From the NCBI GenBank assembly GCA_041660745.1, contig JBAZVT010000003.1, positions 1,880 to 65,879 on the forward strand: DNA of 64,000 bases, in the 5' to 3' direction. Positions 7,402 to 60,933 of the stretch are shown here, one piece after another (position 1 is the first letter of the stretch; each line of letters opens with the position of its first letter). Below the pieces are notes generated by a model, which saw nothing but the letters and a program-made list of their open reading frames with translations, was not told the DNA's origin and searched no databases. The DNA is from Minisyncoccota bacterium. GTDB lineage: Bacteria; Patescibacteriota; Minisyncoccia; Phycocordibacterales; JBAZVT01. Both the position numbers and the translations under genes were made by a program.

Positions 7402-7480
7402 AGGGTATTTACCCTTTGATGCCTTCCTCGGCTCGGAAGTGAGAAAGGGGACTTTCTCACTTCACTCACTCTACGTCAGC
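7402..7480 (+). repeat. repeat family A copy 1 (GCCTTCCTCGGCTCGGA - variable hairpin - CTCACTCTACGTCAGC)
   Basis: Shares conserved flanks with 30240-30320 (inverted) and 60877-60933; central hairpin agtgagaaag-gggga-ctttctcact differs in sequence but keeps pairing. Confidence 0.75.
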
Positions 7481-7490
7481 AATAAGAGTC

Positions 7491-8213
7491 TTAGAAGGTC
7501 TTTTTAATGTATACGAGGTACTCTATATTGCCAGTTCCGCCAATAATAGGAGATTGGATTGATTCCCATTCTGATAGGTGGTTTGCAGTCGTCCAGGCGT
7601 GAATTTTCTCAAGTGCAGAATTGCGGGCGTTTTTGTCAGTCACAACGCCCTGTCTGTTGAGATTGTCTTGTCCCACTTCAAATTGTGGTTTTACAAGGGC
7701 TATAATTTCGGCATCGTTTTTTAATAATGTCAGTACTGCAGGTAGGACTTGTGTCAGGGAAATAAAAGAAACGTCTATGACTGCGAGATCAACCAGCTCG
7801 GGTAGTTGTACTTTCCTCACATCCATCTGTTCTAGGGTGATGACGCGCGAATCATTTCGTAGTGAAGCATCAAGTTGGTTTGTGCCGACATCAATGGCAT
7901 ATACTTTTTGTGCCCCCGCTTGCAATAGGCAGTCTGTAAAACCTCCGGTTGATGATCCGATATCTGCCACTACATATCCTGATGGTTTTACAGAAAATAC
8001 TTCTAAAGCTTTCTGTAATTTTTCACCACCACGACTCACAAAAGGAAGAGGTTTTATGATATGTATATCTAACTCCTCTTCAATTTCCTCGCTTGGTTTT
8101 ATAATTGATTTGTTATTAATGGTTACCAGGCCGCGTTTAATAAGCTCGGCTGCGGCGGTGCGAGAACGACAAAGCCCTTTTTTAAACATGAGAACATCGA
8201 CTCTTTTTTTCAT
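7491..8213 (-). CDS. tlyA: TlyA-family rRNA 2'-O-methyltransferase (S4 + FtsJ-like domains)
   Basis: N-terminal S4 RNA-binding motif (RVDVLMFKKGLCRSRTAAAELIKRGLV), SAM motif VADIGSSTGGFTDCLLQAGA. Confidence 0.85.
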   Translation of the reverse strand: MKKRVDVLMFKKGLCRSRTAAAELIKRGLVTINNKSIIKPSEEIEEELDIHIIKPLPFVSRGGEKLQKALEVFSVKPSGYVVADIGSSTGGFTDCLLQAGAQKVYAIDVGTNQLDASLRNDSRVITLEQMDVRKVQLPELVDLAVIDVSFISLTQVLPAVLTLLKNDAEIIALVKPQFEVGQDNLNRQGVVTDKNARNSALEKIHAWTTANHLSEWESIQSPIIGGTGNIEYLVYIKKTF

Positions 8214-8319
8214 CAGTAACCAGCATACCGTAAATTTTCTGTAAAATCTAATCCTGAGCTAAAATATAACTATTTTACTACTTTCATTTTTGTACTTGAA
8301 TTTGGGTGGTATAATCCAC

Positions 8320-8886
8320 ATGATGGAAAAAACCGATGAAGAACTTGTCAAAGAGTATAATGTCACCGGGGACACAGATGTATTTGAGGTGCTTGTGAGG
8401 CGGTATGGTAAGTCTATATATAATTTTATCTATCGATATGTTGGCGCTGATTCTTACTCGAATGATTTGGCTCAAGATACGTTTGTAAAAATGTGGAAGA
8501 ATATAAAAAAATTTGATGGTAATAAACGATTTAAAACATGGATATTCCAGATTGCAAAAAATACCGCTTTAGATTGGCTAAAGTCGAAACATTCAAAAAC
8601 TTTTTCTGAGATTGAGGCTCTTATGGGTCTCGACGAGGAGTATTTGTTTGAGGTTATTGATACCGAACCTCTTCCTGATGAGTTAGTGGGAAGAAAGGAA
8701 TTAAAAAAAGAAGTTGAGCAAGCTCTTGTAAATATTAATCCAGAATATCGTGCTGTTGTTTCTTTGCATATTTTTTCAGATCTTACGTTTCAAGAGATAT
8801 CAGATATTACAGGGGTGTCAGTGCATACAGTAAAAAGTCGTTATAGGAGGGCACTCATAATGCTTAAAAAACATCTTATGCCGTAG
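8320..8886 (+). CDS. ECF (sigma-70 group IV) RNA polymerase sigma factor
   Basis: Region 2 (IYNFIYRYVGADSYSNDLAQDTFVKMW) and region 4 HTH (LTFQEISDITGVSVHTVKSRYRRAL). ATG at 8320, TATAAT at 8310-8315 only 4 nt upstream (leaderless-type). Confidence 0.85.
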   Translation: MMEKTDEELVKEYNVTGDTDVFEVLVRRYGKSIYNFIYRYVGADSYSNDLAQDTFVKMWKNIKKFDGNKRFKTWIFQIAKNTALDWLKSKHSKTFSEIEALMGLDEEYLFEVIDTEPLPDELVGRKELKKEVEQALVNINPEYRAVVSLHIFSDLTFQEISDITGVSVHTVKSRYRRALIMLKKHLMP

Positions 8887-8921
8887 TGCACCAAAGCCTT
8901 CCTCTGTGTCGTACTATAAAC

Positions 8922-9329
8922 ATGAATGAATATGAGAAATTAATTCAATGTATACCAGATATACACCCCAGGGAAGATTTTGTGGAGGTGGTTATGTTAC
9001 GAGTTAAAAAAGAATTATACATGCGAGCATGGAGACGTTTTGTTACCGGTTCGTTTTTTGCGGTAGCTTCTTTTGTGGCTCTCGTTCCTGCGGTTGTACA
9101 GTTGTACTCCACATGGTTTCAGTCTGGTTCCGCAGAGATAATCTCCCTTGTTTTTTCAGATTTTACTATCGTGACTACCTACTGGAAAGAATTTCTGCTG
9201 TCGTTTGTAGAATCGGTGCCATTTATTCCTTTTGTGGCGGTGTTGGCTTCAGTGTGGGTATTTCTCGTTTCGGTGAGAAGTTTGTTTAAAATACCGACAA
9301 AATCTTTTGGCTTGTTATTCAATAAGTAA
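8922..9329 (+). CDS. putative membrane-anchored anti-sigma factor partner of the ECF sigma
   Basis: Immediately downstream, overlapping the sigma gene; small protein with TM helices (FFAVASFVALVPAVV; FIPFVAVLASVWVFLVSV). Assignment is by position only. Confidence 0.4.
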   Translation: MNEYEKLIQCIPDIHPREDFVEVVMLRVKKELYMRAWRRFVTGSFFAVASFVALVPAVVQLYSTWFQSGSAEIISLVFSDFTIVTTYWKEFLLSFVESVPFIPFVAVLASVWVFLVSVRSLFKIPTKSFGLLFNK

Positions 9330-9339
9330 TTATTATCAT

Positions 9340-9852
9340 ATGGATTTAGATATAAAAAAGGGAGTTCAGTCAAAAACATTTAAATGGGTTTTGTATAGCA
9401 TAGGAATTTTTCTTATATTAGTTATTGTTTTTCGTGCAGGTATGTTCGTTGGCTTTTATCAGGCGAAATTCTTGGGTAATTGGAATAATAATTATTCTAA
9501 TAATTTTATTGGTCCACGAGAAGGCTTTGGAAGAATGGGACCTGGTGGCACAATGGATTTTAGAGATGACGCCTTTTTTAATTCTCACGGTGTTGTGGGA
9601 TCTGTCTTAAAGACGGCATCCTCATCTTTTATTATTGTGGGGAATGACGGTGTTGAGAAAAAGGTTATTGTTGGTAAAGAAACATCGATACGAAAATTTC
9701 GAGATGAGATTAAGGTTTCGGACATTATTGTTGATGATCAGGTTGTTGTTTTTGGGGCTCCCAATAGCGCTGGACAGATTGAAGCTCGACTTATAAGGAT
9801 TGCACCCATGCCAATGAATGGAAAAGCTTTGCCAAAATCATTTATTCAATAA
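9340..9852 (+). CDS. hypothetical membrane-anchored exported protein
   Basis: N-terminal TM (WVLYSIGIFLILVIVF), Gly/Asn-rich region; no recognisable domain. Confidence 0.45.
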   Translation: MDLDIKKGVQSKTFKWVLYSIGIFLILVIVFRAGMFVGFYQAKFLGNWNNNYSNNFIGPREGFGRMGPGGTMDFRDDAFFNSHGVVGSVLKTASSSFIIVGNDGVEKKVIVGKETSIRKFRDEIKVSDIIVDDQVVVFGAPNSAGQIEARLIRIAPMPMNGKALPKSFIQ

Positions 9853-18968: not shown

Positions 18969-19038
18969 GCCCGTGAACAGCAGTTCGCGGGCATAGTTTT
19001 TATAAAAAAACCGGCTGATGGCAGCCGGTTTTGTTTTT
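18969..19038. terminator. two terminator hairpins: one for the 18418 gene (+) and a bidirectional one shared with the VanY-like gene (-)
   Basis: gcccgtgaac...gttcgcgggc + atagtttttat; then aaccggctg-atgg-cagccggtt flanked by A7 and TTGTTTTT. Confidence 0.75.
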
Positions 19039-19924
19039 AATCAAAAAACTTTATGAGATAGGAGTCGATTTCTCGTTGATCCATATCGTAAAAATTCTTT
19101 TTATCTCGGTAGAGTTTTTTGGCGAGACTCTCTCCGACATATCTCCAATGCCAAGGTTCATATTGATAATAAGCATTGTTCTGCGGGTATGAAAGTATAA
19201 AACCATATTTATAGGCATTATCTTGAAGCCATTTGTATGCAATCGTTCCATCAAATTGAGAATAATCTGAACCTAATTTGGCGGTGGTGAGATCAACTGT
19301 TGTTCCGAGTTGGTGTTCAGAATATCCCTGGTCTGCAGAGAATTTATTCGCGCCCGCACCATAGATCACTTTGTAGCTCGAGTTTAGTGAAGTCTGTTCT
19401 CCAAAAGAGCGGTATGCAGAGATGATTCGTAAGTCAGTCCCTGTAGCTTGTACGTCCTCTAGCATTTCTTTTAGGTGGGGCCAAACACCAGATAGTATTT
19501 CAAGGGGGCGTTCTTTGTTGTTGAGATATTCGGTGGAGATTAGCCGCAGTCTTTTGGGTGTGTAATGTTCGTTAAGAAAAAATACTTTTGAATATTTTTG
19601 TAATAATTGTTCGTCTATTGCGTTAAGTTTTTCTAACTCACTAACAGAGCTAGAAATATCTTCAATCTGTTCATTAAAAAGATTGTTCTTCTCTTGTTCG
19701 GTAGCAAGGGCCTCGCTTAGATTAAACTTATCGGTTTCAACTTGGGTCAGTTTTTCGCTTAGGTCTCTATTGAGCTGAATTTCTGCTTGAAGCGCTTGGT
19801 GAGTGTTGCGTGCGATCAAATAGTAGCGGACTCCTCCCACAGCACATAACACAGTAATCCCAATAGTTATAGGGAACACAAAATGCTTATATTTTGAAAG
19901 GGATTCTGAAAAAGATGGGTTCAT
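19037..19924 (-). CDS. D-alanyl-D-alanine carboxypeptidase, VanY/peptidase M15B family, membrane-anchored with coiled-coil linker
   Basis: TM anchor, coiled-coil region, C-terminal RIISAYRSFGEQ...SEHQLGTTVDL...EPWHWRYVG motifs (Zn-binding H-x-D...H of VanY). Confidence 0.8.
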   Translation of the reverse strand: MNPSFSESLSKYKHFVFPITIGITVLCAVGGVRYYLIARNTHQALQAEIQLNRDLSEKLTQVETDKFNLSEALATEQEKNNLFNEQIEDISSSVSELEKLNAIDEQLLQKYSKVFFLNEHYTPKRLRLISTEYLNNKERPLEILSGVWPHLKEMLEDVQATGTDLRIISAYRSFGEQTSLNSSYKVIYGAGANKFSADQGYSEHQLGTTVDLTTAKLGSDYSQFDGTIAYKWLQDNAYKYGFILSYPQNNAYYQYEPWHWRYVGESLAKKLYRDKKNFYDMDQREIDSYLIKFFD

Positions 19925-19961
19925 GGGTAAGATTATACCATAAATACTGCTGCTTGTGGTT

Positions 19962-20129
19962 TTAGCCGTTACTGAGCTTAAACCCTAACCAAATGCCCCC
20001 AATCCCACCTACTGCGGAGAGCGTGATTGACCACATGGAGAGAAATCCCGCCCCCCAGAGATTTGGTACGTAGCTACCAATAGTAGAACCCACAATCATT
20101 CCGATCCAGATGAGAGATTTTGATTCCAT
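19962..20129 (-). CDS. small (55 aa) two-TM membrane protein, last gene of the ArsR-redox-permease operon
   Basis: MESKSLIWIGMIVGSTIGSYVPNLWGAGFLSMWSITLSAVGGIGGIWLGFKLSNG; ATG at 20127-20129, TAA at 19962-19964; below the ORF-track cutoff. Confidence 0.45.
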   Translation of the reverse strand: MESKSLIWIGMIVGSTIGSYVPNLWGAGFLSMWSITLSAVGGIGGIWLGFKLSNG

Positions 20130-20165
20130 GCGGATAGTATATCAAAAAATTAGTTCTTGTGTTTT

Positions 20166-21134
20166 TTAACTTAATATAATATTAAATATATAGCCCGTCG
20201 CAATAATCCCTGTAGCGACTATGCCAGCAAAAATGAGAATAAGTTGGGTTTTCATAACCTTCTTTAATATGATAAATTCGGGTAATGATAGTGCGGTGAC
20301 TGACATCATGAACGCCAACGCTGTCCCTACACTGACTCCCTTTTCCAAAAGAACACTCACAAGAGGAATGATGCCTGCCGCATTTGAATATAGTGGTATC
20401 CCTATAATTACTGCAACAGGGACGCTGTACCAGTGAGATGAGCCAATAATAGCAGTCAGGGCACTCGCTGGAACATAGCCATGAATAAGTGCTCCCAATC
20501 CGATGCCGACCAAGAGATAGGGCCAGACTTTTTTGATAATACCCAGTGTGTATTCGGAAGCAAAGTAGGCTCGTTTGGAGACGCTTATTTTTGTTTCTTC
20601 AAAATGAGCTGAAATTTTTTGTTTAAACACAAAGTCTTCGATGAGGTTTTCTGGTTTTAGGCGTCCAATGATAATACCACTCAGTATCGCGATTATTAAT
20701 CCTGTGATGACATAGAGGAGTGCAATTTTCCAACCAAACATTCCCAATAGAAGCACAAGAGCGACTTCGTTAATCATTGGAGATGATATGAGAAAAGAAA
20801 ATGTTACTCCAAGTGGCACCCCTGCCTGTATAAAACCTAGGAAAAGGGGAATAGCACTACAAGTACAGAATGGAGTAATGATTCCAAATAAAGACGCCAA
20901 GATATTACCAACGAATTCATTTTTTCTTACGAGAATACTACGTATTTTTTCCGCGGGTATAAAAGTTCTTACAAAAGAAATGGTGAAAATGATAATGACG
21001 AGCAGGAGAAGTATTTTGATTGTGTCATATATGAAGAAGTTCACAACGTGTGCAATGTGTGTTTCTGTCTGGATGTTTAAAATAGTAAAAGTTAGAAAGT
21101 CTGCAACAATTTTAATAGGATAAAATATGTCCAT
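20166..21134 (-). CDS. COG0701/DUF318 permease (ArsP-like, TPFCTCS motif)
   Basis: 8+ TM helices; conserved ITPFCTCSAIPLF motif characteristic of the YraQ/ArsP permease family; operon with thioredoxin-like and ArsR genes. Confidence 0.65.
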   Translation of the reverse strand: MDIFYPIKIVADFLTFTILNIQTETHIAHVVNFFIYDTIKILLLLVIIIFTISFVRTFIPAEKIRSILVRKNEFVGNILASLFGIITPFCTCSAIPLFLGFIQAGVPLGVTFSFLISSPMINEVALVLLLGMFGWKIALLYVITGLIIAILSGIIIGRLKPENLIEDFVFKQKISAHFEETKISVSKRAYFASEYTLGIIKKVWPYLLVGIGLGALIHGYVPASALTAIIGSSHWYSVPVAVIIGIPLYSNAAGIIPLVSVLLEKGVSVGTALAFMMSVTALSLPEFIILKKVMKTQLILIFAGIVATGIIATGYIFNIILS

Positions 21135-21146
21135 GTAAATAAATTA

Positions 21147-21389
21147 TTAAGCAGACTGTTGTAAAATTATATTTTTTATTTTCTCCATATCCGCCGTTGC
21201 TCCAACCAAGACAACCTTATCGTTAATGACAAGCACGGGGCTCTGTAAAAGTCCCATTGCCACTATTTTCTGAATATCGCTTATATATTCGATTTCTGCC
21301 GTAATACCCATATCTCTTACGGTAGTTTGTACCAACTCAAACATTTTTTTACATGTAGGACATCCTGAACCAAGCACTTGGATTTTCAC
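21147..21389 (-). CDS. thioredoxin-fold redox-active disulfide protein 2 family (CPTC motif); GTG start
   Basis: MKIQVLGSGCPTCKK... 80 aa; family typically co-occurs with the COG0701 permease and ArsR. Confidence 0.7.
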   Translation of the reverse strand: MKIQVLGSGCPTCKKMFELVQTTVRDMGITAEIEYISDIQKIVAMGLLQSPVLVINDKVVLVGATADMEKIKNIILQQSA

Positions 21390-21401
21390 GAGATATAGAG
21401 A

Positions 21402-21641
21402 TTATTTAGCGAGTAATGATTTAAATACTTCTGGTTGAAAACCAACAATGATATTGTTATCTATTTGAATTACAGGCACGCCCATCTGACCGCTTTTTTC
21501 TACCATTTCTTCACCAGCCTTTCTATCTTTGCTAACGTCAATATCTTCAAAGGGGACATTATTTTCTTTAAAGAAATCTTTTGCGTAAACACAGTATGGA
21601 CATGTTGGCGTTGAATAGACTTTTACGGTGTGGTTTTTCAT
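21402..21641 (-). CDS. glutaredoxin-like protein (NrdH/YruB type, TCPYC)
   Basis: VKVYSTPTCPYCVYAKDFF...GVPVIQIDNNIIVGFQPE. Confidence 0.75.
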   Translation of the reverse strand: MKNHTVKVYSTPTCPYCVYAKDFFKENNVPFEDIDVSKDRKAGEEMVEKSGQMGVPVIQIDNNIIVGFQPEVFKSLLAK

Positions 21642-21670
21642 ATTGTTTTTTAATTATTGTTAATTTGTAA

Positions 21671-21943
21671 TTATTTGTATTTACAGATCAATTTTTTAAG
21701 ATCTGATACAAAAGGTTTGTCGGGAAGTTGATAAAAAGTACATTTGCCTTCTTGTGTGGGGTTAAGTAAGCCGTCGCGTTCCATAATGTGTAAGTGATGG
21801 GATACAATTGCGACGCTCATGGCGAGTTCTTTTGCAATGTCTGATACGCAAATTTTTTTATTATTAAAAATAACGCATAGAATTTTTAGACGGTTTTCTT
21901 CACCAACAGTCTTTAGTGCTTGTGCTAGTTCGTTCAAATGCAT
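21671..21943 (-). CDS. ArsR/SmtB-family metalloregulatory transcriptional repressor
   Basis: ENRLKILCVIFNNKKICVSDIAKELAMSVAIVSHHLHIMERDGLL winged HTH. Confidence 0.8.
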   Translation of the reverse strand: MHLNELAQALKTVGEENRLKILCVIFNNKKICVSDIAKELAMSVAIVSHHLHIMERDGLLNPTQEGKCTFYQLPDKPFVSDLKKLICKYK

Positions 21944-22022
21944 GTTTGAATGATATACCTAATAGAAAAAGATGTCAACAAAGTAAAAACTCACACAATC
22001 TACAAATTGTGTGAGTTTTTTA

Positions 22023-23066
22023 TTAATTTTTGTTTAAAGTTATTTCTGAAGTTTTTTCTGGGGTTATAGTATTCTTGATAATATCCCAGTAGGTTGAGTC
22101 TCCTTTTTTTGTTTTTTGCCAATACCACCATTCTGATCCCCACATATAGACTCGCGATGCTCCAACACGGCGAGCGTAATTAATATTTTTTTCTAATTGT
22201 CGCGGATTCATTGTTTGTTCTTGTGTAGAAATGTCTGTGGTGAGGGGGGATCCATTATGAAACCATGGTTCACCTTGCAGTTCTGAAATAAAGAAATTAT
22301 CAAAACTGTTACCAAATAAACGTGCTTTTATTCGGTAAAGTCCTGCGGGAAGATAGTCGTAGTGCCACACGAAGCCGTAGCGAGAAATGATAAGTCTGTA
22401 TAGCGTTGAGCCGAGGATGTCTCCTGTTTTTGATGCTGAATACCATATAGACATCTCACCACTGTCCGTCATAACAATTTTACGGGTGGGATCCAATTGT
22501 CGTACGAGTGCGACTTCACGTTCAACGAGTGTTTTGTCAAAGGCATCGCAATCGCCAAAATCAAATTTGATAAAAGGCTCGTTTTCAATTTGCCAGTATT
22601 CTATGGATGGATTATTTTTGTATCTTTCAATCGCGTGTTGTATATAAGAGAGTACTTCTGACTGTCTTTTTTCTTTACTAAGTTCTCTTGCCCACTGGGG
22701 AAAATAACATTCTGGCCACCGGGGTATTTTTTGTCCGACGACAAAAAGAATTTTTGTATTATGTTTTCCCGCCTCATTCACAAGATAATCTGTTTCGGAA
22801 AAATCAAATGTTCCTTGTTGGGGTTCGAGCTTATTCCAGGGAGCGGATAAGCGTATCATTGTGGGTTTGAGGTCAGCAAGTATTGCTTGATATGTTTCTT
22901 TCCAGTCAAGGCCGAGAGACTCAGCGTATTCTGGACTGAAACTTACGCCAAATCGGGTGTTGGAGATATTATAAGAAAGAGTCCATAGAATCCCATATAT
23001 AAGAATGAGTATACCTATCAGTATTACGAGTATTCTTTTAATATATTTTAAAATTTTTTTATACAT
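22023..23066 (-). CDS. membrane-anchored glycoside hydrolase, clan GH-A TIM barrel (family unresolved)
   Basis: N-terminal TM; WQIENEP motif (GH-A catalytic acid/base NEP), WGSEWWYW aromatic C-terminus; last gene of an operon with GT28 and a membrane protein. Confidence 0.5.
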   Translation of the reverse strand: MYKKILKYIKRILVILIGILILIYGILWTLSYNISNTRFGVSFSPEYAESLGLDWKETYQAILADLKPTMIRLSAPWNKLEPQQGTFDFSETDYLVNEAGKHNTKILFVVGQKIPRWPECYFPQWARELSKEKRQSEVLSYIQHAIERYKNNPSIEYWQIENEPFIKFDFGDCDAFDKTLVEREVALVRQLDPTRKIVMTDSGEMSIWYSASKTGDILGSTLYRLIISRYGFVWHYDYLPAGLYRIKARLFGNSFDNFFISELQGEPWFHNGSPLTTDISTQEQTMNPRQLEKNINYARRVGASRVYMWGSEWWYWQKTKKGDSTYWDIIKNTITPEKTSEITLNKN

Positions 23067-23083
23067 ACTATGTTAAATCAGCT

Positions 23084-44660: not shown

Positions 44661-44707
44661 AATCTTTTTAAAAAATATATAATTTTCTACTAAAACCCTC
44701 CATTATA

Positions 44708-44741: not shown

Positions 44742-44770
44742 GTTTTCCAACCGAGCGACACAGGTGGTCG

Positions 44771-45031: not shown

Positions 45032-45077
45032 ACAGCATCTCCTTTCCCGAAAGTTCCTACACAGAAGGCAAGTACGA

Positions 45078-45365
45078 TTACTCCTGCATTGGTTTGTGCA
45101 GTATTCTTTCACGCCTCGCAAGCGCCCCCGCAAAATCGTGAGCACATATTGAGATGGGTCCGAAGAGGACCCTGAATATGTACAGACGCCACGATGCCCA
45201 CGAGAATTTCCCCCGAGAAAGATCTGGGAAGAAAACGAACGCAGCGCCGATTGAGTAGCGCAGCCACGCAAGAACCGCGAGGCCTACAACAACAGCAACG
45301 ATCCCGACGGGTACAACCAGACATTCCCACATAAGAATCTCCTTCCAAAAAATAAACATCCACAT
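45078..45365 (-). CDS. small membrane protein (95 aa) on GC-rich island, SD-bearing
   Basis: MWMFIFWKEILMWECLVVPVGIVAVVVGLAVLAWLRYSIGAAFVFF...; GGATGAGGAAAG upstream of the ATG at 45365; the track entry 45078..45458 starts at TTG. Confidence 0.45.
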   Translation of the reverse strand: MWMFIFWKEILMWECLVVPVGIVAVVVGLAVLAWLRYSIGAAFVFFPDLSRGKFSWASWRLYIFRVLFGPISICAHDFAGALARRERILHKPMQE

Positions 45366-45407
45366 TCTTTCCTCATCCTTTATACCACACCTCATATCTA
45401 ATATCAA

Positions 45408-45439
45408 AAAGACCCGGGCATGTGTATGCCCGGGTCTTT
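45408..45439 (-). terminator. terminator hairpin inside GC-island 3
   Basis: aaagacccgggcat-gtgt-atgcccgggtcttt; T-run on the minus strand. Confidence 0.7.
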
Positions 45440-45464
45440 GTCCTAATGATTTGGACAAACTACT

Positions 45465-45704
45465 TCACCCCTGAAACATGTTCGCAAGAGCAATGCGCTG
45501 ACCGACACCGACGTATGGCTTCTGTTCAGAAGCAGGGAAACAACCTGCTAGCGGTGTTCCATACCCCTCGGGACCCCACAACGAACCAGGCTTGTGATAC
45601 CCACGTCCACACGATGCGACAGCCGCCAAGTCGCAAGGAGGCAGGCCACTCACATCTGCCCACGTCAGATCGCTCACCTCAGCAGTAACGTAACCGCCAC
45701 GCAT
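45465..45704 (-). CDS. hypothetical 79-aa protein on GC-rich island, GGAGG SD 5 nt upstream
   Basis: MRGGYVTAEVSDLTWADVSGLPPCDLAAVASCGRGYHKPGSLWGPEGYG...; no similarity recognised. Confidence 0.4.
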   Translation of the reverse strand: MRGGYVTAEVSDLTWADVSGLPPCDLAAVASCGRGYHKPGSLWGPEGYGTPLAGCFPASEQKPYVGVGQRIALANMFQG

Positions 45705-45783
45705 AGTGCCTCCATAGGTAAAAGAAAAGTTTATTCCGCGAACGCTCTATCACCAGAGTACCATATTGGAAGCATCGTGGGTA

Positions 45784-48700
45784 TTATTCTTCTTTTACCT
45801 CGTGTCCACCTTCAACAAAAATAATTTCCGGCACAACAACTTCTTCCGTTTGTAATTCTAATACCTCTAAAGGTTTATTTAGGGCATCATTTTTTTCCTC
45901 AACAACACCCTCCCCGCTTTCTAAATTATCGGGTTCTTTGTATTCATCGGCAATAGGTGTGGGAGTCTCTCCTTCTGTTTTTTCTTCAGAACTCACAGGG
46001 ACCTCCTCTTCCGTTTTTTCTAAAGTAGTGCTTGCTATTGATGCAGATTCCGTTTCTTCTAACATGGCCATTTGCATAGCACCGAAGACACCATCTTCGT
46101 GTATTTCAATAGCCTCAGAAAGAAGTGCAACAGTCACTGGATCTTCTGCATATGCGAGCTTAGGATTTCCTGACGGCACAGCATCAAACCATGGTGAAAA
46201 ATCGACAAGACCAAAGACTGAATCCCCCACTGCAAGATTATTTTTTATCTCTTCAAATGGCCCCGTCGCGTCACCCCACCAATTTTCTTGTGCGAGGATA
46301 GTATTTTCACCCGTAGAAAGAATGCCGTTTGAACGATTTCCAAATATTTGACTGCGAGCAACCGAAGCACTGTCCCCAAAGAAAAGAATCCCATATTCAT
46401 TACGGGCAAGTGTACTTGAAGCAATCACAACTTTCCCATCATCAAATATCCCAACACCCTCAGCTTCATTATCTGAAATATTTGAATTTGTAATCGTCAT
46501 TAAACCCGATGCCAAACTATTTCCAAATATTTCTACACCTGCACCACAATAAGAAATATCTGCATCAGAAATTTCTGCGGAAGAATTGTCGTATACATAC
46601 ACCCCTACCCCGTCCACACGGGAAATATTTGGACGTGTGACTTGGGCGGTGCTATTGGCATATATAGACAAAGCATCTCCAGAAATATTTGAAAGAGCGA
46701 GGTCAGAAAAAATCCCATGAGAATCCATGTACAGATTAATTCCGCCCGTAGTATTTTCAGCGCGCACGTCAGAAAGAGTGACCTCGGCCCCGTCGTATGC
46801 ATTCACAATGGAATCACCGCCAGAAATACTAGTATCCTGTATCGCAAGCGTACACTGTCTACAGGTGACGGTATCAGTATATGGAGAGCCTGTGATTGTG
46901 CTGTTTGAAATAACCACTGAAGAACTTGCCTGTGCACTTATTCCATCCTCAAGTTTTTTTATTTTTGTATATCCAAATACATTTCCTACAGACCCTGAAT
47001 AAAACTCCGTTGCACCAGTGCCATATTCAGAGAGTTCCCCATTATCAGAAGACCTCAAATCTCCCCCGACAGAATCATCTGTAAATTCAGTAAAAATAAC
47101 TGGATTGTCTGATGTGCCAAGCGACTTGATAGTACCCTCCACAGAAAGTCCTGTTGCATAACTCCCCCAACTTCCATTATCGTAAAATTTTACAATCGTC
47201 CCAGGCAAGAGTGTCAGCGTTGTTCCTGAAGCGACGTGTATATTACCTTCAAACACATACGGACTTTCTTCTGGAGTGAGTATCATATCTTCTGTAAAAG
47301 TTTCCCCTCTATACCACACAGTCGAAACACTGTTACGTGACTTTGGCGTGCCTAGGATATATCCATCTTTTGAATCTTTTCCATTTGCAATTTCTCCGGT
47401 GTTCGCATTCCAGTTTTCATAATCAAATCCCCCAACATACGGCGAGACCCGTTCCATGGTTCTTTTGTCACCAGTATCATTACTCCCCCCTGGCCAACTT
47501 CCTTCAACCAACACTGTCGTGTCTATGGTTGTAGATCCGTAATTTAGATTCAATATAACACCACTATTGTTGAGAGCTCCGACATATACAAGGTCTGCTT
47601 GGATATCTGAAACAGAAGTATTGTCTGTTCTCTCCAAGAGAAAGTAGCCATGGGCAGGAATTGTTTTTGATAATGAAATACGCGGTGTTCCAGTAGCTTT
47701 ACTATTAACAAGAGCCCAGCCCGAAAGATCTATATCATACGGAGTCGTGTTATACAGCTCCAACCATTCATCATTAGCATCAGCCTCTGTGCCCATCCAA
47801 GCAACTTCATTAATAACTACAGGCATCGTCGCAACAGACACACTCACTGCAACAGGCTCAGAATCACCACCTGCATTGTGTGCTGAGACAGTAAATTGTA
47901 AGTCACTTCTATCATCAACAACCACGCTGAGCCCAGAGTATGTGGTTGTAGAAACAAGACCGTTTAAATTAAATGTAAAATATTCAGCAATACCAAGAGA
48001 TTCATCTGCTTGCCAGGTCAACGTCAGGGTTGTTGTTGCAACTAGACAGCCAGTCGAGACGAGAGACTGCGAACACTCAGCGACTGAAAAATTTGTAACT
48101 CCAGGAAGCTCAGGAAGAAACGGTGACGGGATTACAGGAACCTCCGGTTCTCCGGGAGATGCTGTGTGGCGGGATCTATTTGACCCAGAATAAATAACCT
48201 GTGTTGGGTTATAAAAAGGCGCAAACACCCCAGTTGGGAAATTTGCGTCAGCTACTTTTGATTGATCTATAAAGCTCGGTGTAGAATTAAGTTCCAATCC
48301 CTCACCCTCATCAAGGACTGTGGTGATACTATTAGTAGTCTTTGACTGTAAAAAAGTAATTGATTTTATTGCAGACTGTGCAAAAGTCTGAGCACTTTCA
48401 CCTGTCTTTTTCGCAACAACCGTTGCTGTTGTCTTTCCGGTATATCCAAGAACGGAAGCGATATTCCCACCCGTTTGCACTGTCCACAACGTTCCATAAT
48501 TAGCACCCCTCCAGGCGCTTGTCGCAACTTTTGCCACAGGTGCACCTATGTAATCTGAGAAAAGATACGCAAAGCCAATTGGTATAAGTTGAAAAATATT
48601 TTTCTTCGCAAGACCCTCAGCAAGCTCTTTATCCTTCAGCGCCTCTTCTACTTGCTCCTGCTTTTGCTCTGCAAGATATTCCTCGCGCGCCGCTTTCGCC

Positions 48701-49575
48701 TCTTTCAAAAACAGCTCTATCACTCCCGCCGACGCCAGCACAGCTTGTTTTGAAAGACGATCAAAGTAGGAAGAGAGGACGGAGTCAGAAAAATAATATG
48801 TCCTTACACCATCCAAACTTATTTTTGTATTTAAAATTTCATATTTTTGGTTATCCAAACCGTCAACACCATAAATAACTGACCCGTCAGAATTTTCAAT
48901 TTCTGGATTTTCAAAATAATTTTCTGAATTATCTATTGTATCTGCACTAAAAAAATTCTTATTTGAGTAGTCTGCAAGATATTCAAAATATTCTGAGATG
49001 TCTGAAAAAGTTATTGGTTCATATCTCCGGTCAACATATTCCTTTGCAGTGCCCGTAAGCGCACTACCATCTTTCCTGCGAGCCCAATTCTCATAAGGAC
49101 TATCTCCTGTATATAACCCGGAAGCACCGTCTCCTTTATGTGGATCATTTCTTGTATGTTCAGGAACAGTCATATCCTGAATAAGATGCAGTACATGACC
49201 TAGCGACAAGAACGCTTTATTATCATTCCCCTCAGCATAATATTGGATCGCTTTTGGCCAAGAAAATTCATTAGCAACAAGCACCCCATCCGTACCCCAA
49301 TCTTTTGCTGAGCGATAGTTATTAAAACCGATTTCTCCTCTCGGATCATAAAAATGATTGAGGGCTCGAATCCCAGCATCCTCATCGACTGATCCCTGAA
49401 TAATTAAACGTTTTTCTGAATCATGTATTTTATCCGTTATGGACTGTAAATTATAAAACTCTATCCCCTGCTCGGTTATGCCAGGGTGAGTTGTTCCAGA
49501 ATGGTATGCACTCACAAAAAATATAGCCCCAAGAAATAAAGGCCCAAAAAACATTCTAAAAAATATCTTTTTCAT
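45784..49575 (-). CDS. 1263-aa secreted multidomain protein: zinc-dependent phospholipase C-like domain + Ig/Fn3-like + lamin-tail domain (LTD) + right-handed beta-helix repeats
   Basis: Signal peptide. N-terminus ALNHFYDPRGEIG...FLSLGHVLHLIQDMTVPEH resembles the Zn-PLC/alpha-toxin H-F-W/Y-D-P and H-x(2)-GD-x(2)-P-x-H motifs. VVINEVAWMGTEADANDEWLELYNTTPYDIDLSGWALV is a lamin-tail-domain signature. Repetitive NISGD/SNISDN pectate-lyase-like beta-helix repeats. Acidic C-terminal tail. Confidence 0.7.
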   Translation of the reverse strand: MKKIFFRMFFGPLFLGAIFFVSAYHSGTTHPGITEQGIEFYNLQSITDKIHDSEKRLIIQGSVDEDAGIRALNHFYDPRGEIGFNNYRSAKDWGTDGVLVANEFSWPKAIQYYAEGNDNKAFLSLGHVLHLIQDMTVPEHTRNDPHKGDGASGLYTGDSPYENWARRKDGSALTGTAKEYVDRRYEPITFSDISEYFEYLADYSNKNFFSADTIDNSENYFENPEIENSDGSVIYGVDGLDNQKYEILNTKISLDGVRTYYFSDSVLSSYFDRLSKQAVLASAGVIELFLKEAKAAREEYLAEQKQEQVEEALKDKELAEGLAKKNIFQLIPIGFAYLFSDYIGAPVAKVATSAWRGANYGTLWTVQTGGNIASVLGYTGKTTATVVAKKTGESAQTFAQSAIKSITFLQSKTTNSITTVLDEGEGLELNSTPSFIDQSKVADANFPTGVFAPFYNPTQVIYSGSNRSRHTASPGEPEVPVIPSPFLPELPGVTNFSVAECSQSLVSTGCLVATTTLTLTWQADESLGIAEYFTFNLNGLVSTTTYSGLSVVVDDRSDLQFTVSAHNAGGDSEPVAVSVSVATMPVVINEVAWMGTEADANDEWLELYNTTPYDIDLSGWALVNSKATGTPRISLSKTIPAHGYFLLERTDNTSVSDIQADLVYVGALNNSGVILNLNYGSTTIDTTVLVEGSWPGGSNDTGDKRTMERVSPYVGGFDYENWNANTGEIANGKDSKDGYILGTPKSRNSVSTVWYRGETFTEDMILTPEESPYVFEGNIHVASGTTLTLLPGTIVKFYDNGSWGSYATGLSVEGTIKSLGTSDNPVIFTEFTDDSVGGDLRSSDNGELSEYGTGATEFYSGSVGNVFGYTKIKKLEDGISAQASSSVVISNSTITGSPYTDTVTCRQCTLAIQDTSISGGDSIVNAYDGAEVTLSDVRAENTTGGINLYMDSHGIFSDLALSNISGDALSIYANSTAQVTRPNISRVDGVGVYVYDNSSAEISDADISYCGAGVEIFGNSLASGLMTITNSNISDNEAEGVGIFDDGKVVIASSTLARNEYGILFFGDSASVARSQIFGNRSNGILSTGENTILAQENWWGDATGPFEEIKNNLAVGDSVFGLVDFSPWFDAVPSGNPKLAYAEDPVTVALLSEAIEIHEDGVFGAMQMAMLEETESASIASTTLEKTEEEVPVSSEEKTEGETPTPIADEYKEPDNLESGEGVVEEKNDALNKPLEVLELQTEEVVVPEIIFVEGGHEVKEE

Positions 49576-49576
49576 G

Positions 49577-50185
49577 TTAGTTTTCTATTTTCCAAATATT
49601 TTTATAAGGATTTAACACGAATCCCACAGACCAATTTTCCTTACTACCTGCAGGAGTTGTAAAAGAGTATTCCCTCCCAGCTATTACACTAGAAGAAGTA
49701 GCTGCTTCTGTTGTCACATGAACGCTAGTAAAAAAGCACACTTCCTTGATGATGCCGGGGCCATTAGAACCTATATATTTTTCACACTTCTTAAATCCAG
49801 AATCTCTGACAACAGTAAGATAATTAAACATGAAACTCTTTTTTTCTTCTGACTCAAAGACACTCCTCAGACTCTCCTTTTGTTTTTCTTGCATTTCGAC
49901 AACATAATATTTGCTTGCCTCTTCAAGATTATTCTTCTTAAGAGCTGCAATAAACATATCCAACGTCCCCTCAGGCGTAGTACTCCCCATTGTGTCTTTC
50001 TTGTATGCCTCCTCCAGTTTCTGTCTTGGCTCTACAACCAATCTATTATAAATCGCTTCCTGACGTTGGTTCTCCATCCACAACGTAATCTTCTCACCGT
50101 ACACACCTAGAAAATAAAAAAGAATAAAAAGAGCAACAATAACAACCCCGCCAACAATGAGAGATTTTTTCAAAAAAGGAGACAT
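49577..50185 (-). CDS. hypothetical membrane-anchored protein, start adjacent to the stop of the 1263-aa gene (likely co-operonic)
   Basis: N-terminal TM (LIVGGVVIVALFILFYFLGV); no recognisable domain. Confidence 0.5.
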   Translation of the reverse strand: MSPFLKKSLIVGGVVIVALFILFYFLGVYGEKITLWMENQRQEAIYNRLVVEPRQKLEEAYKKDTMGSTTPEGTLDMFIAALKKNNLEEASKYYVVEMQEKQKESLRSVFESEEKKSFMFNYLTVVRDSGFKKCEKYIGSNGPGIIKEVCFFTSVHVTTEAATSSSVIAGREYSFTTPAGSKENWSVGFVLNPYKNIWKIEN

Positions 50186-50342
50186 TTTACGTAATATTTA
50201 ATTTAGAAATAATAATTACCAAAAACTTTTTTATTGACACACCCCACAAACCATTTTCTATATTGTATCACCCGCCCCACCAAAAATCTTCATTCCCTTT
50301 TAATAAAAACTGTGGATAACTTTTTCTTCCTTAGGACTCTTC

Positions 50343-50382
50343 CATAGGACCGCCCTATGTTTTCACATAGGGCGGTCCTATG
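50343..50382. repeat. REP-like hairpin D1 flanking the RAYT gene (CATAGGACCGCCCTATG-ttttca-CATAGGGCGGTCCTATG)
   Basis: 17-bp perfect stem; ends 4 nt from the RAYT stop codon; identical stem to D2 at 51105-51144. Confidence 0.85.
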
Positions 50383-50386
50383 GAAA

Positions 50387-51082
50387 TTATTTTGGCTCAC
50401 CTCTTAAATCTCCAAGATCCCTGAACTCAAGCCAGTCAGAAACAATACTTTCAAAAGATGGCGCTGGAGACGAAAAGTAATCCGGAAACTCATCAGCTTT
50501 TAGTATTTTTGATTCAGGTCTTAAATTAAAGTTAATTTCCACATATTCCTTGTAACTTGAATATTTATAATTATCTAAGAAATTCTCAGCTTTTTGCATG
50601 TCCACAACCCCCCTCTCTTTCCACGCAGGATCAATAATCTTTACCGGATTTAAATGTATATATGAAACTAAATACTTTAAATATTCGTCGGTATTTGCAT
50701 GAACTGCTTTAAATCGGCTCTCAAAAAGACTTCCGGTCCGTGTATTTTTTCTATTGAAATACATTGAGTATGACGTAAGCAATTTACCCAAAAATTTACT
50801 TATACCACCTTCTTCTGTTTCTTTTAAAAGTATGTGGAAATGATTTGGCATCAAACAGTATGCGCCGACAGAAACAATACTATCTTTCTTTTGAAAATTA
50901 AAAATATCCTTAAATTCCTTCTCAATCTCCCTAAAAGTTATATTTTGAGATGTATTATAAACAAATAAACCTTTAATAAAACGTTGATAATCTCTTTCGT
51001 CCTGAAAAATAAAGCGTTTATCAACGCCTCGAGCATAAATGTGATAGTACTCTCCTACACTAAATTCGATTTTTCTTTGCAT
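50387..51082 (-). CDS. REP-associated tyrosine transposase (RAYT) / IS200-like Y1 HUH transposase (COG1943)
   Basis: HUH motif LMPNHFHILL; C-terminal SRFKAVHANTDEYLKYLVSYIHLNPVK matches the RAYT catalytic-Tyr region (compare RFWEH...DYIYINPVK). Confidence 0.85.
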   Translation of the reverse strand: MQRKIEFSVGEYYHIYARGVDKRFIFQDERDYQRFIKGLFVYNTSQNITFREIEKEFKDIFNFQKKDSIVSVGAYCLMPNHFHILLKETEEGGISKFLGKLLTSYSMYFNRKNTRTGSLFESRFKAVHANTDEYLKYLVSYIHLNPVKIIDPAWKERGVVDMQKAENFLDNYKYSSYKEYVEINFNLRPESKILKADEFPDYFSSPAPSFESIVSDWLEFRDLGDLRGEPK

Positions 51083-51104
51083 TTTTATAAGAATAGAGGT
51101 TTTA

Positions 51105-51144
51105 CATAGGACCGCCCTATGTTTTTACATAGGGCGGTCCTATG
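51105..51144. repeat. REP-like hairpin D2 immediately upstream of the RAYT start
   Basis: cataggaccgccctatg-ttttta-catagggcggtcctatg; same stem as D1. Confidence 0.85.
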
Positions 51145-51412
51145 TTCTATCTATTGCTATTGTCTAAAGCATTAATGACAGAAGATGGGGTTGGGTTGGA
51201 AGCACGAAGATCGTTGCCGGAAACATAGCTGTTGTAAGAGAGGATGCCGGTGACGATGAGGCTTGCAAGAAGGATCGCGATAAAACTGAGGAAAAAATTG
51301 AAGAATGTTTTATCGAAGCAGTCTGACATTGTAATCGTATTATAACAAAGGCCTTCAGATAAGGGAAAAATGTTGCTCATAATCTGTGGATAACTCAAGA
51401 ATATATAAAATG

Positions 51413-51482
51413 CATACGACCGCCCTATGTATGTCACGGGAAAATTCCCAACTCCCTACCCTAGGGATGTCCTATGTATACG
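51413..51482. repeat. degenerate third copy (D3) of the RAYT-associated REP with a 30-nt insertion in the loop
   Basis: catacgaccgccctatgta ... cctagggatgtcctatgtatacg. Confidence 0.6.
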
Positions 51483-53454: not shown

Positions 53455-53814
53455 ATAGTAATGAATTCTAATAAATGAGTATTTGTGCAAGACACGTTAC
53501 TTAATAAAAAGGTGTGTTCACACAACTACTGTAATAAATTTCACGATCGTACTATATATAGTACGTTAGTGAACCTAATAATGCGTCATCACTCTTGCGA
53601 GCGACAACAAACTACACATTCACTAATCTCGGGGGCTTTATTACTCAACCGCCCCAGGTGGACAAAAGAATTTATTCATTCGTCCACGCGAGGCAGTTAA
53701 ATCGACACAAAGCTTTTACGAGTTTAGGTGATGAAAGTAGGTCTGAGTTCTATCGGAAGCAACCATGTCTGAAGAAGTGTACGGGAATGTCTTTTAGACT
53801 GGGAATAAGAAATC

Positions 53815-53891
53815 CTGGATTGCTTCGGATGATTACATCCTCGCAAAGACAGAAACTGGATCCCCGCATCCGCGAGGATGACAGAGAAAAG
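53815..53891 (+). repeat. repeat family B copy 2 (two tandem direct units)
   Basis: ctggattgcttcggatgattacatcctcgcaaagacagaaa + ctggatccccgcatccgcgaggatgacagagaaaag. Confidence 0.7.
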
Positions 53892-54250
53892 ATGTCTTAA
53901 TTCAAAGTCTTACTGCGCTATTTAATTGTCAAAGGTCTATCGTATTATCCACCCTCTCTGTAACATCTTACGAACACCGCGTGTATTCGTTACATGCCTT
54001 CATTAACTTTCTATCTGTAATGTGGACGTACCATGAAGATACATCTACTGGATAATTATATTCCTTATACAGGTACACTGCAAAGGATACTGTGGATAAC
54101 TTCTAAAAAATCCCGCACGGGACACATCTAGAAGTGGGTATAAGTATAGTCTTTTTATGAAGAAAGTCAATGAAGAAAAGGATTAAAAAGTAATTATGTG
54201 GCTAAAAGCATACGTATTTAGTATGAGTATAAGGAGGTAAAAGAATGCTA

Positions 54251-54436: not shown

Positions 54437-54488
54437 ACAAAAAAGATATTAGAAGGCTCGCAAAGACAGGAGAGGAAAAAAGCAAAGA

Positions 54489-55770: not shown

Positions 55771-55913
55771 CTGGATTGCTTCGGAATACCTCGCAACTAG
55801 AGCACCTGATACCCGCGAGCGGTAAAGACAGAATGGAAAAGGTAGGAGAAAATAGAGGAACAAAGACTGGATTGCCACGTCGGCAACCTCCTCGCAATGA
55901 CAGAATGGAAAAG
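55771..55913 (+). repeat. repeat family B copy 4 (two direct units) in the ftsK 5' UTR
   Basis: ctggattgcttcggaatacctcgcaa...gacagaatggaaaag and ctggattgccacgtcggcaacctcctcgcaatgacagaatggaaaag; ORF-track entries 55621-55958 here are spurious. Confidence 0.7.
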
Positions 55914-59820: not shown

Positions 59821-59900
59821 GATACCGCACACTACTTAAAAATAGACAAAAACGGCCAATTAGCATAGAATTGCGAGGTTACTATAATATAAAAGGCACA

Positions 59901-60485
59901 ATGTCACTTCTTGAATATAATGAAGTCGTAGAACGAAAATATATCATATTGGACGGACAACCATACGAAGTTCTCACTTCACATGTTTTTCGTAAACAAC
60001 AGAGAAAGCCTGTTAATGCAGCAAAACTCAAGAACCTTATCACAGGTAAAGTCACGGAACATTCATTCCACGTATCCGAGAAAACTGAAGAAGCAGAAAT
60101 TGAAACACGAGAGGTAAAGTATCTGTATACAAGCAAGGGTGAATACTGGTTCTGTGAAGCTGAAGACCCTGCAAAACGTTTCCAGCTCTCTGCAGAAATT
60201 GTCGGGACAGCAATACAATTTATAAGAACAAATACAGTGATGGACTCGTATGTTTTTGATGACAAAATCATGGGCGTCCGCCTCCCTATCAAAGCCGACC
60301 TCAAAGTTGTAGATGCTCCTCCTGCAGTCAAAGGCGACACCGCAAAGGGTGGCAACAAGCAACTCAAACTTGAAACAGGTGCTGTTATCAACGGCCCCCT
60401 CTTCATTGAAGAAGGAGAGACCATCCGTGTTAATACAGAAACTGGAGAATACGTGGAGCGAGTAAACGAAGGAAAGAAGTTCTAA
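59901..60485 (+). CDS. efp: translation elongation factor P
   Basis: Three OB/KOW-like domains with EF-P collinearity. ATG at 59901 with TATAAT at 59884-59889, 11 nt upstream. Confidence 0.93.
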   Translation: MSLLEYNEVVERKYIILDGQPYEVLTSHVFRKQQRKPVNAAKLKNLITGKVTEHSFHVSEKTEEAEIETREVKYLYTSKGEYWFCEAEDPAKRFQLSAEIVGTAIQFIRTNTVMDSYVFDDKIMGVRLPIKADLKVVDAPPAVKGDTAKGGNKQLKLETGAVINGPLFIEEGETIRVNTETGEYVERVNEGKKF

Positions 60486-60523
60486 GACAAGGCACTAGCT
60501 ATTAGCCTCTAGAATCTAGCCAT

Positions 60524-60610
60524 AAAAAATATCAAGGTTCGACCTTGATATTTTTTGTATCCAACACCAAATACAAAAGCCGCGCCCAGAGGGCGCGGCT
60601 TTTGTTTTTC
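60524..60610. terminator. two consecutive terminators: efp terminator (atatcaaggt-tcg-accttgatat+T6) and a bidirectional GC-rich hairpin (aaaagccgcgccc-aga-gggcgcggctttt+T-run) shared with rpsR
   Basis: Sequence inspection. Confidence 0.8.
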
Positions 60611-60623
60611 TTATGTAACTAAT

Positions 60624-60827
60624 TTAATTAGCTACGAATGGGAGAAGGCCCATGAAACGAGCACGCTTTACAGCTTCTGAAAGCTTGCGCTGATTCTTGG
60701 AGCTAACACCACTGCGCTTGTGTGATGTGATACGGCCATGAGGATTGAGGAACTTTTTGAGGACCTCTATATCCTTATAGTCTATATGCTTTATGTTGTT
60801 TTGCGCAAAATAGCACTGTTTTTTCAT
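60624..60827 (-). CDS. rpsR: 30S ribosomal protein S18
   Basis: ...HIDYKDIEVLKKFLNPHGRITSHKRSGVSSKNQRKLSEAVKRARFMGLLPF. Confidence 0.9.
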   Translation of the reverse strand: MKKQCYFAQNNIKHIDYKDIEVLKKFLNPHGRITSHKRSGVSSKNQRKLSEAVKRARFMGLLPFVAN

Positions 60828-60876
60828 GTCTGATTTTTTAAGAGCGAAGCGATATAAAAGATGCCAAACTTTTGTT

Positions 60877-60933
60877 GCCTTCCTCGGCTCGGAAATGAGA
60901 AAATTTTTCTCATTTCTCTCACCCTACGTCGGC
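60877..60933 (+). repeat. repeat family A copy 3, in the ssb-rpsR spacer
   Basis: gccttcctcggctcggaa-[atgagaaaa ttt ttctcat]-ttctctcaccctacgtcggc. Confidence 0.75.

Follow-up and report, generated by a model that had tools for sequence, protein, structure and literature searches.

Family A, a small folded insertion without terminal inverted repeats that is probably a mobile element of Patescibacteria

The window analysed here is a stretch of 64,000 nt from a Minisyncoccota bacterium (assembly GCA_041660745.1, contig JBAZVT010000003.1, positions 1,880 to 65,879 of the forward strand), and all positions below are counted within it. It contains three copies of a short palindromic repeat, termed family A. 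Copy 1 lies between the convergent genes truB and tlyA, copy 2 directly after the stop codon of an epimerase gene, and copy 3 in antisense within the rpsF-ssb-rpsR operon (Table 1). The 17-nt 5' flank of the repeat, GCCTTCCTCGGCTCGGA, is matched three times in the window against a chance expectation of 0.05, none of 100 shuffles reaches three, and the 3' flank accompanies all three copies. A covariance model run on the window matched just these copies, even with its filters off.

The original prediction described near-identical flanks around hairpin centres that differ completely. The near-identity holds for the 5' flank, with no more than one mismatch, but not for the whole 3' flank, in which only (C/T)CTACGTC(A/G)GCAA is conserved and the proximal half reads ACTCAC, GTTCGC or TCTCAC. 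The centres are also more alike than described. The stem arms (GAAGTGAGAAAG, GAACTGAAAAAG(T) and GAAATGAGAAAA) have 9–10 of 12 positions in common, with the consensus GAAnTGArAAAr, and only the loops are fully different. The 2–3 arm positions that vary among the window copies each have a matching change in the opposite arm, and every centre does form a perfect fold of 12–13 bp on either strand (z scores of -3.6 to -5.4). The remaining observations were reproduced. Copies 1 and 2 share an exact 20-nt upstream extension, AGGGTATTTACCCTTTGATG, that has no further occurrence in the window; in copy 2 this extension begins one base past the TAA of the open reading frame 30321-31244; and copy 3 is separated by 9 nt from the family E palindrome at 60944-61004, of which a second copy lies at 44335-44405.

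The main point was missed by the original prediction: the copies are insertions that are absent from the orthologous sites of close relatives. The single-stranded DNA-binding protein (SSB) encoded in the window is 100% identical to a protein from a Candidatus Paceibacterota metagenome-assembled genome (MAG), and its close homologues are all from Patescibacteria. In a sister species with the same gene order (SSB 89% and TlyA 75% identical), the convergent truB and tlyA stop codons are 7 nt apart, compared with 168 nt in the window, where copy 1 is present. Likewise, the ssb-rpsR spacer is 22 nt long in the sister species and 228 nt in the window, where it holds copy 3 and the family E palindrome. 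Family A was not found in ~55 kb of the sister species.

A third comparison comes from the spacer between pilC and a pilin gene on contigs outside the window (loci outside the window are given L numbers). In L001 and L019, the pilin start codon lies 22 nt downstream of family A, and the filled site reads ...GATTTTTA/ATGCCGACG...ATATCTTA/TCGAT..., where slashes mark the junctions. The empty sites of L033, L036 and L037 read ...GATTTTTA/TCGATAAAAATT..., the left side also being read as TTAATTGATTTTTA. The empty site corresponds to the filled sequence less 79 nt and one TTA, and the filled sequence has TTA on both sides. PilC of L001 is 93–94% identical to that of the three empty loci and 88% identical to that of L019, which implies either two insertions at the same triplet or one precise loss. 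These three independent empty-site comparisons show that the copies are insertions missing from the orthologous sites of relatives. Family A is also shown to be one family with a common architecture, and its junction is exact, with TAA on both sides.

Family A is also nested with other small insertions, since copy 1 is split by one and copy 3 appears to lie within a family E insertion. The left junction of copy 1, TAAAGGGTAT, is the same as that of copy 2 (TAA-AGGGTAT), and AGGGTAT appears again at 7402-7408, after a 69-nt insertion. Deleting this insertion together with one AGGGTAT recreates the copy 2 sequence TAAAGGGTATTTACCC. Within the 69-nt insertion, a terminator-like hairpin (7337-7355) precedes a T run and now lies downstream of truB.

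The complete unit measures 79–90 nt and consists of TAA, a variable short hairpin (hairpin 1), a T-rich linker, a 62-nt core, a single A and a second TAA. Wherever the left boundary can be defined, the unit starts right after TAA. The right TAA is at a fixed offset in 9 of 11 copies, the exceptions being copy 2 (TAG) and copy 3 (GAA). In copy 2 and in L004, the left TAA doubles as the stop codon of the gene upstream, and in copy 1 it stands in tandem with the truB stop codon. It is usually preceded by A-rich host sequence, giving AAA-TAA, which is Lys-stop in two cases, so the element often lands on or beside a stop codon. The segment from the TAA to the core (15–28 nt) has a genome-specific sequence and is nearly always a short hairpin followed by the linker. 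The stems of hairpin 1 include AGGGT/ACCCT, AAGcGGT/ACCCTT, AAGAT/ATCTT, GAAGcTTCACC/GGTGAACTTC and AAGGTG/CACCTT; at 5–10 bp and variable, hairpin 1 is unrelated to the 13-bp core hairpin (GAAATGAGAAAG). Terminal inverted repeats (TIRs) were not found, as the left ends AGGGTATTTACC, AAGCGGTAT and GATATTAAA are unlike the reverse complement of the right end TTGCCGACGTAG. An outer pair around copy 3, GAGCGAAGCGATAT and GAAGCGAAAGCGACAT, was rejected as a TIR because it occurs once in the window and seems to be part of the family E insertion. A coding peptide, an idea that arose from an in-frame stop after GGCA, was rejected as well, because the copy lengths differ by non-multiples of three and a stop codon lies just upstream in frame.

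The fold was analysed in an alignment of 11 copies, three from the window and eight from loci elsewhere, two of which are an orthologous pair. In the 12-bp stem, 94.8% of the alignment cells pair, and six of the 12 pairs have changed on both sides, a result that none of 500 shuffles and no slid control matches and that supports the proposed preservation of the hairpin by compensatory change. With RNAalifold, a 13th pair (G-C in eight sequences and A-U in three) appears past a 1-nt bulge, as does an outer pair around TGCC/GGCA, which occurs as U-A, A-U or C-G and has three mismatches. Between the stem and this closing pair, the conserved boxes (5' CTCGGCTCG and 3' CTCGCTC) are opposed as G-C steps with invariant mismatches between them, which are U.C/C.U on the strand of the original prediction and tandem G.A/A.G on its purine-rich reverse complement. 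On the latter strand the core folds into a rod made of a closing stem nUGCC/GGCAn', an irregular box helix, the 1-nt bulge and a 13-bp terminal stem. With RNA parameters, the purine-rich strand is the more stable one by 3–8 kcal/mol in 9 of 11 copies, and with DNA parameters it is so in 10 of 11. On the other hand, G.U and A.C mismatches are balanced 4:3 between the strands, so the functional strand is not identified by them. The attC, dif and K-turn motifs were rejected on inspection, as their cores, arm spacing or bulge position do not fit.

The sequence of the terminal stem drifts by compensatory change. Across the copies the 5' box is invariant, the stem pairs are compensated, and the loop and proximal 3' box vary freely; this pattern points to selection on the fold and the boxes, acting either at each mobilisation or in place. 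Perfect palindromes are also subject to quasipalindrome mutagenesis, in which templated correction produces changes that look compensatory without selection on an RNA. Templated correction can therefore be a further, selection-free source of compensatory change in family A.

The wider distribution was examined with an exact-pattern scan of 185,579 species representatives, one genome per species. True family A copies were found at 1–2 matches per genome in four low-GC genomes, represented by L001, by L004 and L009 (same MAG), by L005, which carries a Saccharibacteria label, and by L006. The other seven of the 12 matches were discarded as chance matches in high-GC coding sequence, as were six of 11 matches in a metagenome scan. 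The metagenome query was the 5' flank alone, and every low-GC match (L019, L020 = L004, L021 = L009, L023 and L024) also has the hairpin and the 3' flank, which indicates that family A is one unit. In all, eight full copies are known outside the window (L001/L019, L004 = L020, L009 = L021, L005, L006, L023 and L024), on low-GC contigs resembling those of the candidate phyla radiation (CPR).

None of these full copies lacks the hairpin. A weakened stem was seen only in a ninth, degenerate copy in L034, which the covariance model recovered in addition to the three window copies; its boxes are mutated, and it still lies between TAAs. Locus L009 also holds a variant (~6681-6745) with the same left segment, the right end CTACGTTGCCGA-TAA and a different, imperfect central hairpin. 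The neighbouring genes are unrelated to each other (truB/tlyA, two epimerases, ssb/rpsR, rplB/rpsS, pilC/pilin, murF/greA, dsbD, ppa and a thioredoxin gene), and the copies occur in both orientations relative to them.

Searches for a known counterpart gave no match. At the gathering thresholds, Rfam recognised nothing in the window but large subunit (LSU) and 5S rRNA, leaving family A unmatched, and the best sub-threshold matches (E <= 10) scored 14–20 bits against cut-offs of 56–59. ARAGORN found no tRNA or transfer-messenger RNA. A scan of viral contigs gave a single chance match in a high-GC coding region, and BLAST against phages and plasmids returned nothing; with no true match in these searches, a phage or plasmid origin was rejected. 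Full-text literature searches for the family A sequence and for CPR repeats or miniature inverted-repeat transposable elements (MITEs) retrieved nothing relevant, and family A is apparently undescribed.

Table 1. Positions of the family A copies and of other repeats and genes in the window
Feature	Position	Strand	Remarks
Copy 1, left TAA and first 7 nt of hairpin 1 (AGGGTAT)	7323-7332	+	separated from the rest by the nested insertion
Copy 1, left TAA	7323-7325	+	immediately follows the truB stop codon (7320-7322)
Nested insertion in copy 1 (69 nt)	7333-7401	+	not family A; bounded by duplicated AGGGTAT (7 bp)
Copy 1, hairpin 1 (AGGGT-ATTT-ACCCT) and T-rich linker TTGA	7402-7419	+	same as copy 2
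Copy 1, core: TGCC, 5' box TTCCTCGGCTC, hairpin, 3' box, CTACGTCAGCA-A	7420-7482	+	hairpin 7435-7465; covariance model 87.5 bits
Copy 1, 5' flank	7421-7437	+	0 mismatches
Copy 1, right TAA	7483-7485	+	opposite-strand tlyA stop codon 5 nt beyond (7491-7493)
Copy 2, left TAA	30321-30323	-	stop codon of epimerase gene 30321-31244
Copy 2, hairpin 1 and linker AGGGTATTTACCCTTTGA	30303-30320	-
Copy 2, core	30238-30302	-	hairpin 30255-30287; covariance model 83 bits
Copy 2, 5' flank	30285-30301	-	1 mismatch
Copy 2, right-flank triplet TAG	30235-30237	-	one change from TAA
Intrinsic terminator of the epimerase gene	30177-30212		after the right-flank TAG of copy 2
Copy 3, left TAA	60855-60857	+
Copy 3, hairpin 1 and linker AAGATGCCAAACTTTTGT	60858-60875	+	stem AAAAG/CTTTT takes in the AA of TAA
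Copy 3, core	60876-60935	+	hairpin 60891-60918; covariance model 81.9 bits
Copy 3, 5' flank	60877-60893	+	0 mismatches
Copy 3, right-flank triplet GAA	60936-60938	+	TAA lost; followed by family E palindrome (60944-61004)
RAYT-like Y1/HUH transposase gene	50387-51082	-	231 aa; motifs HFH and YIHLNPV
Palindromes bracketing the RAYT-like gene	50340-50382, 51102-51144		perfect, 43 nt, CATAGGACCGCCCTATG doublets
Third copy of the bracketing palindrome	51397-51476		degenerate
Stretch missing from the sister species (6.5 kb)	44647-51171		contains the RAYT-like gene
Family E palindrome CACCCTGTTAAAT ... ATTTAACAGGGT	44300-44435, 60944-61045		insertion relative to the sister species
Repeat family CCTCCTCGCAAAGACAGA...	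53810-53860, 54457-54477, 55886-55911, 61644-61694
23S rRNA gene	37251-40906	-	followed by 5S rRNA

Considering the unrelated sites, the two orientations, the presence or absence among relatives, the exact junctions and the nesting together, a mobile element gives the best fit. Family A is thus probably a small, non-coding, non-autonomous, TIR-less mobile element of Patescibacteria that resembles MITEs and repetitive extragenic palindromic (REP) sequences and targets (AAA)TAA. A trans-acting enzyme would move it by recognising a folded single strand, that is, the hairpin and the conserved boxes, in the manner of REP/RAYT, IS200/IS605 and attC. Mobility would then depend on the fold and not on the sequence of the stem, which would explain why invariant boxes stand beside a covarying stem. 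The leading candidate for the enzyme is a transposase of the HUH/Y1 class (IS200/RAYT type). After insertion, family A is carried along in 3' and 5' untranslated regions (UTRs) and in operon spacers, where its hairpins may stabilise RNA, provide processing sites or act as weak terminators.

Several observations weigh against this interpretation. The low copy number (1–2 exact matches per genome, three in 64 kb) looks unlike a bursting MITE. Family A has no TIRs and no transposase tied to it, and the RAYT-like gene in the window has palindromes of its own that differ from family A, so it is not a demonstrated partner. The right-hand TAA could be the element's own instead of a duplication, in which case slippage between TAA repeats could bring about precise loss without any enzyme. 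The use of exact flank patterns in the searches explains part of the invariance of the flanks, and the L034 copy shows that flanks can decay. Functional RNA motifs typically have an invariant tandem mismatch beside covarying pairs, as is seen here. Lastly, the orthologous copies of L001 and L019, with ~25 nt on each side, are ~95% identical when the adjacent coding DNA is ~75–85% identical, and this suggests constraint after insertion.

The last two observations also support the first alternative, in which family A is a structured small RNA or a cis-acting motif whose boxes form an internal loop (tandem G.A) that binds protein or RNA and whose stem need only pair. The copies would then act as genes or as UTR elements with a function, and gain and loss would account for their patchy occurrence. 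Further support is found in the covariation of the stem and of the pair 17-49, in the changing outer closing pair and in the better folding of the reverse-complement strand. The sequence UUAUUUU, which comes after hairpin 1 on that strand, is terminator-like, and the reverse-complement version is co-oriented with the flanking genes at 8 of 12 independent sites. The resulting 8:4 ratio is not significant, however, and the 4:3 balance of mismatches favours neither strand. The small RNA element suggested by the original prediction is not borne out, given the lack of an Rfam match, the two orientations and the absence of promoter-like sequence: no sigma-70-like site was found at the three window copies, and no sequence is conserved at a promoter position. 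A promoter of its own, for which TTAT near the reverse-complement 5' end would be the -10 element, was rejected as inconsistent. Family A is also tied to no gene class, and it is absent from the sister species at both tested sites and in ~55 kb overall. We therefore regard a structured RNA as a rather unlikely explanation of the family, but such a role is compatible with mobility, as in a domesticated or "useful" mobile element.

A second alternative is a double-stranded or cruciform DNA site for a host nucleoid, recombination or replication protein, with the boxes as contacts and the palindrome as a spacer. The strand-neutral mismatch pattern, a function independent of orientation relative to genes, and the resemblance of the boxes to direct CTCG(G)CTC repeats that flank the palindrome would all agree with such a site. 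It is nevertheless improbable, because the copies are too few and their sites too arbitrary for a role in organising the chromosome, and the sister species does without them at both sites and throughout the ~55 kb. Inspection also showed no likeness to dif, parS or attC cores, and the orientation of family A ignores the GC-skew switch near 27 kb (2:1, not significant). Ordinary intrinsic terminators that became alike through convergence or local duplication would account for stable hairpins after stop codons or between convergent genes, but are very improbable, since the main stem is A/T-rich with no U tract after it and a terminator scan called no core, separate canonical terminators adjoin copies 1 and 2 and the L004 and L009 copies, identical 15-nt boxes across distant genomes are not a terminator property, and copies also lie within operons and in a 5' UTR.

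Returning to family A as a probable mobile element, its closest analogues include the REP/REPIN-RAYT systems, the PATE elements and the classical MITEs. Like REP sequences, it forms short extragenic palindromic hairpins without TIRs, has conserved unpaired bases beside a compensating stem, occurs in 3' UTRs and between convergent genes, and shares the window with a RAYT-like gene. The product of this gene scores 43 bits with Pfam Y1_Tnp and 43.9 bits with NCBIfam REP_Tyr_transpos, against a cut-off of 80 for the latter. The reverse complement of family A does contain GACGTAG upstream of the stem, but the GTAG lies 8–9 nt from the foot and is not adjacent to it. In contrast to REP/REPIN-RAYT systems, the palindromes that flank the RAYT-like gene are of the CATAGGACCGCCCTATG type and not family A, and family A has TAA on both sides, an apparently low copy number and a second, unrelated small hairpin. 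A link between family A and the RAYT-flanking palindrome through the likeness of ACGTAGGGTG and ACATAGGGCG (8 of 10 positions) was not used, as such a likeness is expected by chance given how many alignments are possible. The RAYT-like gene with its palindromes is in its own right a REPIN/RAYT-like arrangement in a CPR genome.

With the PATE elements, which are non-autonomous derivatives of IS200/IS605, family A shares subterminal hairpins, oriented insertion beside a short specific sequence and the lack of TIRs. In the reverse complement, the triplet is located 19 nt 5' of the foot of the large hairpin, a spacing similar to that of the IS608 left end (LE). The two hairpins of family A are, however, unrelated in sequence and size, and family A has the triplet on each side, unlike IS200/IS605, which inserts without a duplication. 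No complementarity to the TAA/TTA site exists in the bases 5' of the stem foot, so that on inspection the guide rule does not hold. Classical MITEs (Correia/CREE, RUP, ERIC, bcr1 and Nezha) are likewise small, non-coding, multi-copy, A/T-targeting, co-transcribed elements with a short flanking duplication, insertion polymorphism among relatives and a fold-back structure. A target-site duplication is seen for family A at the pilin locus, with the caveat that one TAA could be the element's own. The differences from MITEs are the absence of TIRs, an internal hairpin that is not made by the ends and a fixed orientation relative to the asymmetric TAA; furthermore, no related full-length insertion sequence with family A ends was seen in the window or in ~260 kb of loci. 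Family A works like a REP-, PATE- or MITE-type repeat, yet does not qualify as a member of any of these groups.

Two other systems have features in common with family A. Integron attC sites likewise enclose a variable, imperfectly paired centre between conserved outer boxes and are recognised as a folded single strand, but family A has no RYYYAAC/GTTRRRY cores (its ends are TGCC...GGCA), no cassette array and no integrase nearby, and its copies are dispersed and solitary among housekeeping genes. TIGR-Tas arrays are found in CPR bacteria too, as units with variable palindromes and conserved short motifs. TIGR units, which contain box C/D motifs and spacers, form tandem arrays beside a Tas gene (PMC12045711), and an identity with them was rejected because family A is solitary and dispersed and has no such neighbour.

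Further observations concern the surroundings of the copies. Copy 2, together with a strong terminator, lies between two tandem NAD-dependent epimerase/dehydratase paralogues that have 76% identity across 300 nt (29100-29399 and 30322-30621). A short-read contig of the same organism (L039, 4172-4249) stops within the sequence common to copies 1 and 2, an assembly break due to the repeat. In L009 (MAG ELA554), the rplB-rpsS spacer is 410 nt long (6474-6885) and holds a family A copy, the variant copy, a strong bidirectional terminator (6745-6780) and a near-consensus promoter on the gene strand (TTGACT-17-TAATAT); the conserved S10 operon is thus split by inserted DNA.

A second element was observed right after the pilC stop codon in L036 (7709-7840), L001 (857-970), L034 (9559-9672) and L038 (4442-end), and it is missing at the same site in L033, L037, L035 and L019. 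It runs from TAG/GCTCGCTCGG through a long stem and two inner hairpins to CCTCGCTCGCT/TAG, with the conserved loops CTGCTG and CCGTCG, a z score of -5 to -9 and no Rfam match. It shares with family A the CTCG-repeat boxes, with their G-C steps and tandem mismatches. Very tentatively, the two could be members of a new superfamily of TIR-less, rod-folding CPR mobile elements with TAA or TAG targets, often a stop codon. Their common recognition feature would be a single-strand helix of G-C steps broken by tandem G.A mismatches, their mover an HUH-type or other enzyme, and the members may double as structured UTR RNA modules.

Other repeats have also entered this genome. The family E palindrome at 44.3 kb has an empty site in the sister species (L026, ~19930-19970); at 60.9 kb, family A appears nested in family E, and the ends of the composite carry GCGAAGC and GCGAAAGC motifs. 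Two copies of the CCTCCTCGCAAAGACAGA family lie in spacers (53798-53911 and 61562-61715) that exceed their sister-species counterparts by 95–150 nt. Compared with a model of 2925 positions, the 23S rRNA gene extends over 3400 nt, with ~475 nt of extra sequence that contains no open reading frame recognisable by Pfam. The 64 kb contain neither a 16S rRNA gene nor any tRNA gene, which suggests an unlinked rRNA arrangement. The cumulative GC skew has its maximum near 27 kb and the genes change from mostly plus to mostly minus near 19–20 kb, which is consistent with a replication terminus-like region at ~19000-28000.

Genomes of CPR/Patescibacteria are ~1 Mb in size, and their genes are packed very tightly. 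In the genome studied here, spacers have been widened from 7–22 nt to 170–230 nt by several short palindromic families, and the widened sites include ribosomal-protein operons, a gap between convergent genes and a pilin 5' UTR. Family A would mark recent genome dynamics in uncultured lineages, and it accounts for assembly breaks. It also offers a concrete test substrate for the Y1/RAYT-like enzymes encoded in these genomes. If the tandem-G.A box is an RNA motif, it would be a candidate protein-binding module spread via transposition. If the proposed reading is true, a fold-defined, TIR-less element that targets (AAA)TAA would represent a new type of small mobile element.

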